The position numbers and the translations under genes were made by a program. 64,000 nucleotides of DNA from an uncultured Nitrososphaerota archaeon (GTDB lineage: Archaea > Thermoproteota > EX4484-205 > JAAOZO01), in assembly GCA_964408285.1 (NCBI GenBank), contig CAYOYV010000003.1, positions 96,001 to 160,000 on the forward strand, written 5' to 3'. Shown here piece after piece: positions 2,477-64,000 of the stretch (position 1 is the first letter of the stretch; every line of letters begins with the position of its first letter). The notes under the pieces were generated by a model. The model saw only the letters and a program-made list of their open reading frames with translations. It ran no database searches and had not been told where the DNA came from.

Positions 2477-3208
2477 ATGGAGAGAGGATTCTTGATAACC
2501 GGACATAGAGGCGCGTCTGCATTCTTTCCGGAGAACACAATAAGATCCATACAAGGCGCTATCGAATGTGGGGCAACAGCCGTAGAACTCGATGTGAGGT
2601 CCACTTTGGACGGTCATCTAGTGCTTTCGCATGATCCGACGCTGGAGAGGACGTGTGGATTGTCTAAGCAGATATCAGAGATCAAACTGTCAGAGGTGCA
2701 GACCCTGCGGACTAGGGGCGAAAAGATACCAACACTTGAAGAAGCAGTTCGTGCAGTCGCTGGGCGCATGAATTTGGATCTTGACATTAAGCTAGTTGGG
2801 TGCGAAGAGCAAATAGTGAACATAGTCAGGGAGCATGATCACTTGGGGAATACGCTCTTCACTTCATTCTTCCCCCAAGTAGTCTACAGGATTAACCAGA
2901 TAGCTCCTGAGGCAAAAAAGGGTCTGATAACTATGGGTACAACAGAGGAGGCAGTTCTGATATGCCCTGAAATTGGAGCTTCCACGATCGTCCCGTTTTG
3001 TGGCGATCTGGATGACAAACTATTGAGAATCGCGAAGTCAAGTGGACTGAGCACAATAGCTTGGACGGTCAATGAGCCGGAGGAGGCAAAACGACTTCTT
3101 GAGAAAGGAGTTGATGGGATAATAACAGATGATCCATGCGGTCTTGCCAAGGCCATGAGCGAATCCGGCGACCGCCGCCAGAGGCGAAAGGGCTCGCGTC
3201 GTTCATGA
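2477..3208 (+). CDS. Glycerophosphodiester phosphodiesterase (GDPD/UgpQ family)
   Basis: GHRGAS..PENT, VELDV, HD.TLERT, IPTLEE, WTVN, GVDGIITD. Confidence 0.93.
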   Translation: MERGFLITGHRGASAFFPENTIRSIQGAIECGATAVELDVRSTLDGHLVLSHDPTLERTCGLSKQISEIKLSEVQTLRTRGEKIPTLEEAVRAVAGRMNLDLDIKLVGCEEQIVNIVREHDHLGNTLFTSFFPQVVYRINQIAPEAKKGLITMGTTEEAVLICPEIGASTIVPFCGDLDDKLLRIAKSSGLSTIAWTVNEPEEAKRLLEKGVDGIITDDPCGLAKAMSESGDRRQRRKGSRRS

Positions 3209-3248
3209 ACGAATTATGCATTGGCAAGGATCTCTCCTTGTGTTTTGG

Positions 3249-4376
3249 TCACCGCAATAACGATCTGTAGATGCCTTCTATCTGCTTTGTGATGAGATTC
3301 CAATCGAAACCCCTGACGGCTTTTGATCTAGCATTCGATGCTAGATGAGTCCTGAGCTTCTTGTCCTGCAGGAGATCTACTATTGCACTTGCCAACTCGA
3401 TCTCTGAACCTGGTTTTACGAGCAGCCCCTCATTGTGATCAGCAATGATCTCGGGAACTCCGCCTGTCCTTGAGGCGATAACCGGCAATCCACTGGACAT
3501 AGCCTCTAGAAGAACCATGCCAAAGGACTCTGCATATAGTGAAGGCAGTGCAAACAAAGCTGCATTAGCATAGATGCTCGGAAGCATCTCCGGACTGACA
3601 TCACCTAGGAATTCGGTGTTACCACTTATTCCGAGATCATGCACCAAAGACTCTAGATTGAGTCTCATGTATCCGTCTCCAACGAATGTCAGCTTGGCAT
3701 TGGGTTCTTTTCTGAGAACCCTCTTGAACGCCTTCAGTAGCACATGTGGTCCTTTCCTATGAACTAGCCTACCCACGAACAGTATCTGATTTTCATTCCC
3801 ATCCTTCCTCAAATCAGGTGTGAACCTTGTAGTGTCGATACCGTTTGGTATGATATCTATTGGAGCATAATCGATAAAGAGGCTTATGAAGTCAGCCGCC
3901 GCCTGGCTGACAGCTATTGCGTGGTCAGCCAGATTCAGATAATACTTGATTGGTTGAAGAAGGGAGCTAGCACTAGGCCAGACTGACCCGATGTCATACC
4001 ACCCTCCAGGTATAGAATGATTCGTTACCACTGAAGGAATACCGCTCTCATTTGCGACGGAAAGCCCAACTAGAGGCATTGCCGTAAAGGCATGATGGGA
4101 ATGGACGATATCGAACTTCTCCTTCCTGGTGAATTGCTCGATTTCGTCTCGAGCGGGCGGCATAAGGGGAAAGTTGAATGGAAAGGCTGGACTTATGCGA
4201 ACAATCCTAGTGTTCTCAGAGATATCCTCAACAGGTCGCTTCATCCCCCGGACTTTCTTCGTGAAAATCGTGACTTCGTGGCCCCTTTTGTCCAGCTCGT
4301 GCGAGAGGCCCTCCACATGAGAGCTGACTCCTCCCTTGACGGGAAGGTACCACTCGGTGAAAAGTGCGATCCTCAT
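3249..4376 (-). CDS. GT4 glycosyltransferase (PIG-A/PimA-like)
   Basis: N-term EWYLP..GGVSSHV, DIVHSH, IPNGID, FVGRL..RKG, ESFGMVLLEAM. Confidence 0.9.
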   Translation of the reverse strand: MRIALFTEWYLPVKGGVSSHVEGLSHELDKRGHEVTIFTKKVRGMKRPVEDISENTRIVRISPAFPFNFPLMPPARDEIEQFTRKEKFDIVHSHHAFTAMPLVGLSVANESGIPSVVTNHSIPGGWYDIGSVWPSASSLLQPIKYYLNLADHAIAVSQAAADFISLFIDYAPIDIIPNGIDTTRFTPDLRKDGNENQILFVGRLVHRKGPHVLLKAFKRVLRKEPNAKLTFVGDGYMRLNLESLVHDLGISGNTEFLGDVSPEMLPSIYANAALFALPSLYAESFGMVLLEAMSSGLPVIASRTGGVPEIIADHNEGLLVKPGSEIELASAIVDLLQDKKLRTHLASNARSKAVRGFDWNLITKQIEGIYRSLLR

Positions 4377-59995: not shown

Positions 59996-61356
59996 TCATC
60001 CTCGTTCAATGTCTTCTAGGAAGTCGGTCAGTACATCCTCCAGATTCGGAAGGCCGATCTCTTTCAGCTCATATCTGACATGGACTGCGGCCTTGTTGAT
60101 CTTGAGCAATCCATTAAGCCTGATGGGAGTTGCGCTCACAACAACGTCTGCTGTTGTGCTATTTATCGTTTCTTCTAACTCCTTCATCTGCTGAGGCCCG
60201 TATCCCATCGCCGGAAGGACCTTTGTAACATGCGGAAAGCTCTCGAATGTCCTCTTCAGGCTACCGACTGCATACTCAATTGGATTCACGATCTCACTCG
60301 CCTGGAATTGCCTTGCTGCAAGATATCCTGCCCCGTACGACATGCCTCCATGGGTTATGGTTGGTCCATCCTCTATGACAAGAGCTCGTTTTCCCCTAAT
60401 CATCTCAGGCTTCTCGACGTAGATCTCTGAAGATGCTCTGACAATGAGTGCATTCGGGTTTTTGGATCGCACGTTGTCCATCACGATGGAGATGCTTCTC
60501 TCGCTTGCAGTATTCACTTTGTTGACTATTATTATGTCCGCCATTCTGACGTTAGTCTCGCCAGGGTGATATTCTATCTCGTCGCCGGGACGCATGGGAT
60601 CGACTACTGTTATGAGGAGATCCGGCTTGAAGAAGGGGAAATCATTGTTGCCTCCATCCCACACGATCACATCTGCTTCCTTCTCAGCCTCTTTCAAGAC
60701 CATGCTGTAGTCCACGCCAGCAAAAACAACTATTCCTCTCTCGAGATGAGGCTCATATTCCTCTCTTTCTTCAATCGTGCAACGTGCCCTGTCGAGATCA
60801 TCGAATCTCTCGAATCTCTGAATTGCTTCTTCCAGGAGATTTCCATATGGCATCGGGTGTCTGACGACAACCGGGTTCTTTGCCTTCTTCCGCAATATGT
60901 CAACGACCCTCCTTGTGGTCTGACTCTTTCCTGATCCAGTCCTACCCGCGCAAATCGCTATAAGTGGCTTGCTTGATTTCAGCATCGTATCGTTAGGCCC
61001 AAGCAGCATGAAGGACGCCCCTGACGAAAGCACCTCACTGGCCTTGTGCATGACATATTCGTGAGATACATCGGAGTATGAAAACACAACAAGATCAACC
61101 CTCTGATCTCTTATTGTCTCGGAAAGGTCTTCTTCAGGGATGATCGGTATTTCGTTTGAATAAAGCAAACCTGCCAATGATCGGGGATATCTCCTATTCT
61201 GGATGTTCGGGATCTGGGTCGCCGTGAACGCTACAACTTCATACTGGGAGTTGTCTCTGAAGAAGACATTGAAGTTGTGGAATGCGCGGAGTGCAAGAAT
61301 ACTTGCCCTCGATCGCGTCCCGCGGCTCCCATAATGATCACCTTGCGTCTTGCCAG
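59996..61356 (-). CDS. COG2403 P-loop protein (arginine synthetase ArcE / cyclic 2,3-diphosphoglycerate synthetase-like); two exons 61356-61312 and 61282-59996
   Basis: FTATQIP, RTGSGKSQT, RHPMPYG, EEREEYE, WDGGNND, EDGPTITHG, LPAMGY. The N-terminus LARRKVIIMGAAGRD is in another frame and joins FHNFN only after removing 29 nt. Spliced product is 443 aa from CTG 61356, downstream of SD GGAGGTGA. Confidence 0.88.
61283..61311 (-). other. Putative 29-nt bulge-helix-bulge (BHB) pre-mRNA intron
   Basis: mRNA: GGA-CGCG-AU^C-GAGGGCAAG-UAUU-CUUGCACUC-CGCG-CA^U-UCC. 4-bp central helix with two 3-nt bulges; excision gives GGA CGC GAU UUC CAC (G-R-D-F-H). Confidence 0.85.
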
Positions 61357-61362
61357 GTCTCA

Positions 61363-61370
61363 TCACCTCC
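61363..61370 (-). promoter_or_regulatory. Shine-Dalgarno sequence GGAGGTGA
   Basis: Strong anti-SD complement 6 nt upstream of CTG 61356. Confidence 0.7.
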
Positions 61371-61494: not shown

Positions 61495-63609
61495 TTACCT
61501 AGCAGTTCTTCCTTCAAGCCATTCAGGCCGATATCGGCTCAATGATAAGGAATTCAACGTCACTGTCATCGAACTCAATGCCATGGCCAGAGCAGAGAAA
61601 ATGGGACTTAGGAGGACACCAGTCAAAGGGTACAGAACGCCAGCTGCAAGAGGAATCAATGCTACGTTGTAGACGAAGGCCCAAAATAGGTTCTCCCTAA
61701 TTTTCCTGGAAATGAGTCTGCTCACGTCAATTGCCAGTGCAACTCCTCGGGGATCGTCGCCGACCAATATGATCTGACCTGTCTCCTTCGCTACATCAGT
61801 TCCACCTCCCATTGCAATGCCCACGTCCGCTGCCGCTAAGGCGGGCGCATCGTTTATCCCATCACCGACCATTGCGATGATCCGGTTCTCTGACCTAAGT
61901 CCTCTTACAATGTCAATTTTGTCTTGGGGGAGGACCCCGGCGATGACCTCACCTATCCCAAGTTTCCCAGCTATGGCGTCTGCCACAATCTGGTTATCGC
62001 CCGTGAGCATGGCTGTTTCTATGTTTCTGCGAGCCAGTAACTCGACTGCTTCCCGGGAATGGATTTTCGGCACATCGGCCACAGCAAGGATGCCAATCAA
62101 ATCACCATCCAATGCAACCAGAAAAGCTGTATTCCCCAGATTCTCTGATTCACTTAGCTTTTTGGCCATTTCTTGATCCAAGCGCAGTCCCTCTGTCTCG
62201 ATCAGTCTCTTTGTCCCGACAATGACCTGCCGACCATTCACGACCGAGCGCAATCCTCCCGGCAGAACCTTGGTCAGATCTGCGCGATCCGGCTTTATCT
62301 CTCTTCGTTTGGCCTCCTCAAGTATCGCCTTTGCGATGGGATGTTCAGAACCGGCCTCTGCAGAGGCAGAGAATAAGAGAACGTCGAGTTCCCGCATGCC
62401 ACCACGTGGCAATATTGAGACAACAGAAGGTCTTCCCGTCGTAAGCGTTCCTGTCTTGTCGAACACAACCATAGTGACCTTTCTTACTCGTTCTAACTCT
62501 TCCCCTCCCTTAATCAGTACCCCAAATTGAGCGGCTCTTGAGAATCCTACGGTCAAAGCAGCTGGGGTTGCCAAGCCGAGGGCACAGGGGCAAGCTATTA
62601 TCAGAACCGCAATCGCAGTCGTCAGGGCAAAGCTCAACGGCATCCGACCGAGAAAAAGCCAGATGCTGAAGGACAGGATCGATGTCAGAACCACAATGGG
62701 TACGAATCTGCTCGCTATAGCGTCTGCTAATTTCTGTGCTGGTGATCGAGTGAGAATTGCTTCTTCTATCAGGCCAGTTATTTGAGAAAGGGTCGAATCC
62801 GCTACCGTTCTGGTAGTCCTTATCTTGACAAACCCATTGAGATTCACTGATCCGGCGAAGACTTGGCTTCCCGGGGATATGTCAACTGGTATCGACTCAC
62901 CCGTAATAGGCGACATGTCCGCAGATGAGGAACCTTCCATGACTTGTCCATCAACTGGAATCCTCGATCCGGGTCTGACAGCTAATGTGTCATCCACTCT
63001 GACCTCCTCCACTCTTACCTCCTTCTCTAGGCCATCTTGAACGAGAGTGGCCATGGGTGGCTGAAGCTCCAGTAATCTTGTCACCGATTCAGAGGCCCGC
63101 TGTTTGGTCGAATGCTCTAGGAACCTGCCGAGGAGGATCAGCCCTATTATGAGTGCCGAATCAGCGAAATAGGTCGGCGGCATCTCGCCCGCTCCTTGCT
63201 GGATCATCTGGGGAAAGAACGTTGCAACAACGCTGTAGAAATAGGCCGCGGATGTCCCGATAGCTATGAGTGAGTCCATATTCGCTTGCCTAGACCTCAG
63301 TGCGTCAAGAAGTCCTCTATAGAATACATAACCAGCCCCAAACTGGATTGGAGTGACTAGAAGAAAAATGGCTACTCGTGTGAGTTGGGTGTCAGGAGAA
63401 ATCGCCACAAAATCTGATAGCATAGTCATCGCACCCACCGCCAAGCTGATGATTGACAGATCTCTGTATCTCCTGATTTCCCTTTCAGGCCTCAGGAACT
63501 CGTCGTAGCATGTCCTACTGCAGAAGTAGTAGGTTCTGCCTCTTCTGTCCAGTCTGAATCGGGTCGTGTTCTCATCCACATACATGCCGCACACTACGTC
63601 CCTTGCCAT
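61495..63609 (-). CDS. copA: Cu(I)-transporting P1B ATPase with N-terminal TRASH/YHS domain
   Basis: DVVCGM...YYFCS..C, TGES, CPCALGLA, DKTGTLT, SEHP, GDGINDAP, YN and MALSS Cu+ motifs. Confidence 0.95.
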   Translation of the reverse strand: MARDVVCGMYVDENTTRFRLDRRGRTYYFCSRTCYDEFLRPEREIRRYRDLSIISLAVGAMTMLSDFVAISPDTQLTRVAIFLLVTPIQFGAGYVFYRGLLDALRSRQANMDSLIAIGTSAAYFYSVVATFFPQMIQQGAGEMPPTYFADSALIIGLILLGRFLEHSTKQRASESVTRLLELQPPMATLVQDGLEKEVRVEEVRVDDTLAVRPGSRIPVDGQVMEGSSSADMSPITGESIPVDISPGSQVFAGSVNLNGFVKIRTTRTVADSTLSQITGLIEEAILTRSPAQKLADAIASRFVPIVVLTSILSFSIWLFLGRMPLSFALTTAIAVLIIACPCALGLATPAALTVGFSRAAQFGVLIKGGEELERVRKVTMVVFDKTGTLTTGRPSVVSILPRGGMRELDVLLFSASAEAGSEHPIAKAILEEAKRREIKPDRADLTKVLPGGLRSVVNGRQVIVGTKRLIETEGLRLDQEMAKKLSESENLGNTAFLVALDGDLIGILAVADVPKIHSREAVELLARRNIETAMLTGDNQIVADAIAGKLGIGEVIAGVLPQDKIDIVRGLRSENRIIAMVGDGINDAPALAAADVGIAMGGGTDVAKETGQIILVGDDPRGVALAIDVSRLISRKIRENLFWAFVYNVALIPLAAGVLYPLTGVLLSPIFSALAMALSSMTVTLNSLSLSRYRPEWLEGRTAR

Positions 63610-63615
63610 TCTCGG

Positions 63616-63873
63616 CTACCTCTTCTGTAACATCGGTCTATATCCAGATCGCACAATCTCCTTCTCCACTTCGTCCAGTGTAGCGTCGTCGCCGATGTAT
63701 CTGACTTTTATCTGCTGCGTGACGAAATTTAGAGTGGCTTCTTTTATTTTCTCATTTCTCTTGAAGGCCGATATCATTGATAGCCCACAGCTGTAGCAGT
63801 CAAGGCCCCCTATCCTATATATCGCGGTCTTTTCCGTTTCCTCTCCTCTCGTACCATGGGCGACCTCGTTCAT
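63616..63873 (-). CDS. Heavy-metal-associated (HMA) copper chaperone-like protein
   Basis: IGGLDCYSC, I...GY. Confidence 0.85.
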   Translation of the reverse strand: MNEVAHGTRGEETEKTAIYRIGGLDCYSCGLSMISAFKRNEKIKEATLNFVTQQIKVRYIGDDATLDEVEKEIVRSGYRPMLQKR

Positions 63874-63876
63874 CTG

Positions 63877-64000
63877 CTATCTCGCTAGCGATTTCTTGAG
63901 ATCCCCAACGCACATGGGACACAAGTAGTAAGTCTTTCCTGCCACGAATATCCTCGTTGCCGTTCTCGCGTCAACGAGCATCCCGCAGAAGGGATCCTTC
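63877..64000 (-). CDS. C-terminal TRASH/YHS domain of upstream protein (partial; possibly CopT/CopR-type regulator)
   Basis: Hand translation KDPFCGMLVDARTATRIFVAGKTYYLCPMCVGDLKKSLAR*. Confidence 0.75.
   Translation of the reverse strand, partial: KDPFCGMLVDARTATRIFVAGKTYYLCPMCVGDLKKSLAR

Follow-up and report, generated by a model that had tools for sequence, protein, structure and literature searches.

A 29-nt insert interrupts a protein-coding gene on the minus strand of the window, the whole 64,000-nt stretch of contig CAYOYV010000003.1 from an uncultured Nitrososphaerota archaeon that was analysed here. The insert (61311-61283) is very probably a bulge-helix-bulge (BHB) intron that lies within the coding part of a COG2403-like gene and would be spliced from the mRNA by the endonuclease EndA and the ligase RtcB. 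It separates the Asp from the Phe codon of the motif GAAGRD/FHNFN, and this motif is reconstituted in the host protein only after the 29 nt are spliced out.

Structure of the insert and its host gene

The minus strand from 61320 to 61279 reads GGA CGCG AUC GAGGGCAAG UAUU CUUGCACUC CGCG CAU UCC and was parsed as a complete hBHBh' motif (61279..61320), with a geometry that is kept in 53 natural variants (see below). The outer helix h is formed by GGA (61318..61320) and UCC (61279..61281), the latter lying within the Phe-His codons. The central helix joins CGCG of the exon (61314..61317, letters of the Arg and Asp codons) to the intronic CGCG (61285..61288). Two 3-nt bulges on opposite strands, AUC (61311..61313) and CAU (61282..61284), enclose this 4-bp helix, which is flanked by the 3-bp exon-exon helix h on one side and by the intron hairpin h' on the other. 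By sequence and folding, h' (61289..61310) is GAGGGCAAG-UAUU-CUUGCACUC with 8 of 9 pairs and a UAUU loop. Archaeal EndA cuts after the second nucleotide of each bulge; by this rule, cuts are predicted after U 61312 and A 61283, and the intron comprises 61283..61311. Removal at these cuts joins GAU to UUC at the predicted spliced junction, GGACGCGAU followed by UUCCACAAC, and restores GAAGRD/FHNFN; all 53 variants do likewise, by construction of the parse. The coordinates and pairings given for the insert and the BHB in the original prediction all proved correct when the minus strand was read.

In the proposed mechanism, the exon letters GGA-CGCG and UCC of the pre-mRNA would base-pair, partly among themselves and partly with the intron's 3' end, presenting the two 3-nt bulges with the 4-bp helix between them. 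A two-subunit EndA of the crenarchaeal type would cut after the second nucleotide of each bulge, and RtcB would join ...GGA CGC GAU to UUC CAC..., restoring M..IIMGAAGRD/FHNFN. The unspliced message would be unable to yield the conserved protein.

The exon-1 frame opens after TGA 61362-61360 and translates to LARRKVIIMGAAGRD; without splicing it runs for 41 residues and ends at TAG 61233-61231, as had been predicted. Its coding part, (M/V)IIMGAAGRD (61312..61341, minus strand), was assigned from the N-terminus common to 117 of 120 homologues, and we infer GTG 61341 or ATG 61332 as the start codon. Exon 2 (59996..61282, minus strand), delimited by homologue matches, encodes 428 residues (FHNFNVFFRD...) up to the stop codon. 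Its frame is open backwards through the insert to GTG 61366, which gives an open reading frame (ORF) of 456 aa at 59996..61366 (minus strand, GTG start). GTG 61366 and ATG 61363 stand directly 3' of GGAGG. This ORF is the version of the gene callers, recorded as P0002 (455 aa), and the claim that ORF callers miss the intron because another frame is open is borne out by it. The N-terminus of the unspliced ORF, MRPGKTQGDHYGSR... (MRPGKTQ...), consists of 28 unrelated residues.

With exon 2 as query, thousands of homologues were retrieved, 120 of which were listed. Exon 2 is 62-75% identical to the 120 listed proteins, and 64-75% identical to full-length homologues, over 98-100% of its length. 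GAAGRDFHNFN occurs within the first 40 residues in 117 of the 120, which agrees with the predicted restoration of the family motif at the junction. The three exceptions are the unspliced ORF of the window itself, a 75%-identical metagenome protein starting VLRVFHNFN, which is probably in the same situation as the window gene, and one protein with FHNFI. Since the motif is near-invariant in the homologues, the insert can be placed exactly between its Asp and Phe codons. The recorded starts of intron-bearing copies, whether from databases or from ORF callers, are arbitrary. P0002 has a false N-terminus, P0003 is truncated (VLRVFHNFN...), and the 404-aa ORF in L010:1549-2763 is likewise mis-started (MAFTAAQIPGI...). 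With such internal or foreign starts on record, the N-termini of the family are systematically wrong in intron-bearing lineages.

Close homologues are named "GTPase" or "cyclic 2,3-diphosphoglycerate synthase" by their sources. Pfam searches of the host protein gave weak P-loop matches and no dedicated family, and NCBIfam gave no family. The sole solved relative is the cyclic 2,3-diphosphoglycerate synthetase 9sxb, a weak match (E = 8.7e-7) covering residues 222-336. Full-length similarity to named members points to a COG2403-like gene, for which a role in cyclic 2,3-diphosphoglycerate synthesis or as "ArcE" is putative. The label "ArcE/COG2403", attached to the gene at the outset, was presumed and was not confirmed by the analysis. 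No paper was found under the name COG2403 in the literature search, outside of which subscription journals and supplements lay.

The insert is genomic: contigs from four sequencing runs of four studies cross the 29 nt without an indel or a joint. The short contigs of other organisms in these runs agree with 61250-61282 only and then diverge, the match ending at 61282/61279. From the loose-end consensus, these contigs appear to be intronless homologues that encode ...VIIMGAAGRD directly and break off at the predicted 3' splice site.

Conservation, covariation and coding constraint

In a first sample of 41 genomes of relatives, the gene was present in 12 and had no internal stops. Inserts at the same boundary were found in G002 and G004, which belong to the same family as the window genome (G000) and carry 29 nt with a quite different hairpin, and in G034 of another family (f13), where the 27 nt include an in-frame TGA. 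The copies of G001, G003 and five further genomes were intronless. The intronless copies of G003 and G001 (L004 and L005; same family, genus g2) have different site codons (GGG/GGA AGG/AGA GAC TTT CAT) and occupy a long branch of their own in the gene tree, suggesting that the gene was replaced rather than that it simply lost the intron.

For the phylum-wide search (401 genomes), the pattern fixed the coding flanks only (GGNMGNGAY, 15-60 nt, TTYCAYAAYTTYAA), and a BHB was not asked for. Of 23 genomes matched, 17 held true inserts and 6 were spurious (an upstream GxD codon run or unrelated sequence). The 17 comprise G000, G002 and G004 from the own family and 14 of the 17 genomes of family f13 (genus g15, 12/12; genus g94, 2/2). 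All 17 inserts read GGA CGYG AYN [hairpin] CRYG NNU UCC, at lengths of 23, 24, 25, 26, 27, 29 or 30 nt. By exact-cluster look-up, the genes flanking the G034 copy are LysW-pathway proteins of Ca. Caldarchaeum, which NCBI taxonomy places within Thermoproteati/Nitrososphaerota. They lie at L010:260-1342 and 2740-3921 ([LysW]-lysine/ornithine hydrolase and LysJ-type aminotransferase), and this neighbourhood hints at a role of the host gene in lysine or arginine metabolism. The window gene, unlike that of G034, has no LysW-pathway neighbours.

A scan of named genomes yielded one further insert (19 nt, in an "uncultured archaeon" record) and none in 86 other distinct loci, all bacterial ones included. 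The intronless archaeal copies come from records titled Thermoplasmata/Thermoplasmatota, from Aciduliprofundum, Thermofilum and Methanodesulfokora, and from one Bathyarchaeia copy. Metagenome contigs were scanned with the pattern GGACGYGAY N{9,39} CRYG NN TTCCAYAAYTT, which returned 63 contigs, 55 of them true. Genome and metagenome loci together gave 60 distinct segments, namely 53 true variants (73 loci), defined by ...(I/L/V)xGA(A/G) upstream and FHNF... downstream, and 7 chance matches. The true variants are 18-37 nt long and fall into all three length classes modulo 3.

The outer helix (GC, GC, AU) is invariant in 53/53 variants; it was fixed by the metagenome pattern and free in the 401-genome flank pattern. 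The central helix is CGUG/CACG in 30 variants, CGCG/CGCG in 20 and contains a G-U wobble in 3, with no mismatch, although the pattern allowed R/Y mismatches. All four central pairs are therefore present in every variant, a result partly imposed by the pattern for the 55 metagenome loci. Because the R/Y combinations pair, the synonymous C/U in the Arg codon covaries with G/A in the intron. The inner hairpin was constrained by no pattern. At least 4 consecutive base pairs from the bulges inward were found in 49/53 variants, as against a mean of 1.47 and a maximum of 6 in composition-matched shuffles (1000 trials). The 7 chance matches served as an internal negative control and had end stems of 0-1 bp. 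The hairpin sequence differs among variants, and its pairing is kept.

Pairs were counted on a plain MAFFT alignment (A1) with the structure named by the analyst, and were compared with 500 shuffles. Paired cells made up 95.9% (82.1% in shuffles), 122 cells were changed on both sides (43.8 ± 6.4 in shuffles), and the covariation value was 0.435 (0.179 in shuffles), with 0/500 shuffles as high. When the partner was slid by 1-3 columns, covariation dropped to 0.123 or less. Compensatory changes occurred in all six h' pairs, and 7 of 13 pairs overall had changed on both sides.

The reading frame is broken in 53/53 variants, by a shift in 34 and in frame in 19; each of these 19 carries a stop codon, where 5.1 were expected from shuffles. 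In the exon-1 frame, a stop lies inside the intron in 52/53 variants, compared with about 16 in shuffles (maximum 27) and with 14 and 12 of 53 in the other two frames. Such frame-specific stops look as if they had been selected to terminate translation of mRNA that is still unspliced. In the two exon-1 Ala codons that precede GGA, positions 1 and 2 are invariant or nearly so and position 3 takes all four letters; by this pattern of substitution, purifying selection acts on exon 1 in its own reading frame. The downstream ORFs are intact: every genome locus has one of about 420 aa, and in 45 intron-bearing rows the length is 300 aa or more. The comparison of orthologs thus bears out the expectation that the insert, kept in 17 of 401 genomes, retains BHB pairing with compensatory changes and is free of pseudogene decay.

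Splicing machinery and alternative readings

In G000, two proteins each contain PF01974 and PF02778 (tRNA-intron-endonuclease domains) above the Pfam cut-offs; the pair is encoded at C4:48740-48997 and C8:13446-13700. One, of 194 aa, most resembles catalytic subunits from crenarchaeal heterotetramers (2cv8_A, 3p1z_B, 2zyz_B). For the other, of 217 aa, the nearest structures are 1a79 and the N-terminal "EndA-like" half of 5x89; by our reading it has no obvious catalytic His. RtcB is also encoded in G000, above the Pfam cut-off. The EndA of this genome thus fits a two-subunit enzyme of the crenarchaeal type as judged from its proteins. In the accessible parts of two papers (PMC5829648, PMC3082918), two-subunit EndA is linked to a broad substrate range and to TACK lineages including Aigarchaeota.

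The cbf5 gene of G000 has an in-frame TGA and a 15-nt BHB mini-intron, CGGGA CCCU UG^A GUGAAUUC GGGG AA^A UCCUG, which was found by homology and read from the DNA (L119:1697-1711 = G000:C6:39016-39030, plus strand). It lies at the published cbf5 intron position, as given in the available part of PMC2738675. The single documented kind of archaeal mRNA intron is therefore already present in this organism. In 31/41 genomes, the CBF5 profile match is split near profile position 70 into two adjacent pieces; in G000 and G027, and also in a second cbf5 copy of G011, there is one match, which contains one internal stop. BHB mini-introns of cbf5 were verified in G002 (16 nt), G013 (13 nt) and G034, the Ca. 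Caldarchaeum relative (14 nt), and cbf5 of G028 failed the strict BHB test. The range of cbf5 introns seen here is wider than in the 2009 description for Desulfurococcales/Sulfolobales. The cbf5 introns (L119, L195, L196, L198) and the window intron have the same outer helix GGA/UCC with an adjoining G+C-rich 4-bp central helix; this common helix may reflect a recognition preference or a common origin.

Apart from cbf5, no further mRNA intron was found in G000 by motif scans, which had no discriminating power. For the combined BHB and ORF scans, a first filter gave 2560 candidates and a hairpin-free variant 2513. A stricter scan recovered the known intron among 148 candidates, against 127 in a pseudo-pairing control, and with a compact-hairpin filter 169 motifs remained, most of which lie within intact ORFs. 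As these scans were indiscriminate, further introns in G000 are neither claimed nor excluded. The original prediction that ordinary metabolic genes are spliced by the tRNA machinery therefore stands for this one gene and not in the plural, cbf5 being the only other case in the genome. For this gene, removal of a BHB intron by that machinery is supported by conservation of the site and by constant geometry at variable length, and also by compensatory changes, intact ORFs, selection on exon 1 and the presence of two EndA subunits and RtcB.

Several observations weigh against splicing. As a single sequence, the window insert folds no better than shuffles (z = -1.44). The minimum free energy (MFE) structure, at -21.8 kcal/mol, adopts a shifted register, and the canonical BHB scores -16.9 kcal/mol (-19.6 with the outer pairs), 2-5 kcal/mol less stable in the nearest-neighbour model. 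A shifted-register MFE is expected for 3-nt bulges and decides neither way. The outer helix of the window BHB has just 3 bp. For the metagenome variants, the search pattern itself dictated the outer helix and some of the central one, and the free observations among them are the R/Y covariation, the hairpin and the stop codons. Many variants are related to each other, and the shuffle statistics consequently overstate independence. The sole variant of the 53 lacking an in-intron stop is that of the window, together with an identical metagenome copy. A look-up of sequencing runs containing the region listed 10 of DNA and none of RNA; cutting and joining of the exons, like translation of the spliced product, are deduced from sequence. 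Finally, the exon-2 frame is open back to GTG 61366 / ATG 61363 after GGAGG, and an unspliced product with a foreign N-terminus is thereby possible.

The last point leads to the strongest rival, by which the real product is the unspliced 456-aa ORF from GTG 61366 or ATG 61363, and the fold is irrelevant or a cleavage or regulatory site without ligation. The ORF is open, is preceded by GGAGG and was recorded by gene callers, and the stop-free window variant favours it as well. In Haloferax, expression is also known to be affected by a BHB located in a 5' UTR, according to the available part of PMC7714728. This product would, however, lack VIIMGAAGRD, which is present in 117/120 homologues. In G002 and G004, moreover, the equivalent frame has a stop, followed by no ATG, GTG or TTG before the intron, and exon 1 is conserved in its own frame. 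In the other lineages, intron lengths represent every class modulo 3, and hence there is no conserved alternative N-terminus. Translation of the unspliced ORF as the real product is accordingly judged improbable.

Ribosomal recoding, either as a programmed frameshift or as a bypass of the insert, is rated lower still. A hairpin and a stop after the take-off codon are features of bypassing in T4 gene 60, and here a hairpin follows the last exon-1 codon, with a stop right after that codon in many variants. Bypassing requires matching take-off and landing codons, however, and the take-off codon here is GAU or GAC, whereas the intron ends in GCA in the window and in GAG, GAA, GAU, GUA, GCU or GAC elsewhere, so that the match is not found. 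A simple +1 or -1 shift is excluded by the lengths, which span 18-37 nt and represent every class modulo 3. The conserved feature is the BHB geometry of 3-nt bulges and a 4-bp helix, which has no role in bypassing.

That the locus is a pseudogene disabled by an insertion is hardly credible. In favour of this reading, the frame is disrupted and the gene was found in only 12 of 41 relatives. On the other hand, the downstream ORFs have no further frame breaks, variation in exon 1 is synonymous only, and the insert is kept at one site in at least four gene-tree groups with compensatory changes. An assembly or sequencing artefact has a negligible chance, given the bridging contigs of four runs and four studies and the same-site inserts in 17 genomes and 55 metagenome contigs. 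A self-splicing group I or group II intron was considered and rejected; it needs a ribozyme core of hundreds of nucleotides, and the inserts measure 18-37 nt.

With ARAGORN, no tRNA was found in the 64-kb window. For the whole genome (ARAGORN -i), 21 tRNAs were returned, some of them doubtful, and tRNA introns were not used as evidence. As read from their translations, three genes stand directly upstream of the host gene. The first, a 704-aa ORF (61495-63609, minus strand), contains DKTGT and CPC motifs and resembles a heavy-metal P-type ATPase; a small heavy-metal-associated-like protein (63616-63873, minus strand) and a short Cys-rich ORF (63877-63981, minus strand) follow.

Evolution of the proposed intron and relation to known systems

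In gene trees, intron-bearing copies appeared at several places among intronless archaeal and bacterial copies. A quick IQ-TREE run on 56 rows required 3 intron changes, 1 of them forced by well-supported branches. Of the 104 distinct loci, 48 are absent from this tree (two thirds of rows L037-L116 except ten selected loci, mostly archaeal-titled). A FastTree run on 83 rows, from which the same 48 loci, 11 partial metagenome rows below 300 aa and duplicates were omitted, required 6 changes, 4 of them forced by starred branches. The backbone of the gene tree is weak. In the 83-row tree, the copy with a 31-nt intron groups with two intronless Bathyarchaeia-like copies, and the clade with 37-nt introns groups with an intronless genome. 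The insert occupies one site across at least four separately placed groups. By the trees, either an old intron would have been lost many times, also before transfers to bacteria, or it would have been gained repeatedly at one site. A single origin would be compatible with the 56-row tree.

The insertion site is special because the Gly-Arg-Asp/Phe-His codons dictate GGA-CGYG...UCC, which is already half a BHB. On this basis, a wider proposal may be put forward tentatively, as a possibility that we consider rather doubtful. Instead of a lone relic, the intron could be an evolutionarily dynamic BHB element of TACK archaea, gained or lost repeatedly at one "pre-adapted" site where these codons supply the exon half. 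It could have been selected to abort translation of unspliced mRNA, so that splicing by EndA/RtcB would gate production of the enzyme post-transcriptionally. If this were true, there would be a hidden class of mRNA introns that gene callers turn into wrong N-termini.

A BHB pre-mRNA intron in cbf5 of Crenarchaeota was reportedly described by Watanabe in 2002. At the time of Yokobori 2009, no other pre-mRNA splicing had been confirmed, according to the accessible part of that paper (PMC2738675). In the available text of Schwarz 2020 (PMC7714728), cbf5 is the only additional BHB intron reported, and a Haloferax 5'-UTR case is added. Two NAR papers (2018 and 2025) cite the cbf5 work alone for pre-mRNA. 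The Caldiarchaeum genome paper treats tRNA and rRNA introns and a heterotetrameric endonuclease and mentions no mRNA intron. Within the limits of the literature search given above, no published report of an intron in this host gene was found. By that literature, the host gene would be the second in archaea, after cbf5, with a BHB intron in the coding sequence, and the frame-specific stop codons would be a new property relative to known BHB mRNA introns.

Like the crenarchaeal cbf5 intron, as far as the accessible part of PMC2738675 describes it, the present intron is a short BHB in coding sequence that splits a strictly conserved catalytic or binding motif. Both vary in length and are sometimes in frame, both show patchy, lineage-specific loss, and both occur in lineages with two-subunit EndA (PMC2738675). 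Unlike cbf5, the host gene is COG2403-like (metabolic or GTPase-like) and encodes no RNA-modification enzyme. The distance from the start to the intron is 10-14 codons, the intron falls on a codon boundary rather than within a codon, and in-frame stops are present in 52/53 variants. Splicing of cbf5 was shown experimentally, whereas splicing here is predicted from sequence comparison.

From outer helix through 3'-strand bulge, central helix and 5'-strand bulge to intron hairpin, the window intron has its parts in the order of tRNA introns at position 37/38, and the enzymes are presumably the same. It resembles the hBHBh' introns of pre-tRNAs and of rRNA processing stems in its two 3-nt bulges on opposite strands, 4 bp apart, with flanking helices. 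Unlike tRNA introns, the substrate is an mRNA without a tRNA body, and the exon-encoded strands of its helices are constrained by the Gly-Arg-Asp and Phe-His codons. The BHB in the 5' UTR of HVO_1309 of Haloferax volcanii also lies in an mRNA; it depends on EndA and affects expression, according to the portion of Schwarz 2020 available (PMC7714728). In contrast to that leader BHB, both exons here encode one conserved motif, and exact ligation is therefore required. HAC1/XBP1 splicing of eukaryotes, a process mentioned in PMC13149111, is similar in that a short mRNA intron is removed by protein enzymes, IRE1 and tRNA ligase or RtcB, independently of the spliceosome, with RtcB-type ligation and a change of frame. 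The endonuclease and the recognition structure differ from those proposed here, and there is no sign of stress regulation in the present case.

For annotation, the consequence is that databases hold the host gene with a false N-terminus or a truncated start (P0002, P0003 and the L010 ORF). The 53 natural variants constitute a comparative data set on what EndA needs in an mRNA, and they inform on gain and loss of the intron, at least 4 changes being forced on the gene tree. The frame-specific stops offer a testable clue to how translation and splicing may be kept apart in cells without a nucleus.

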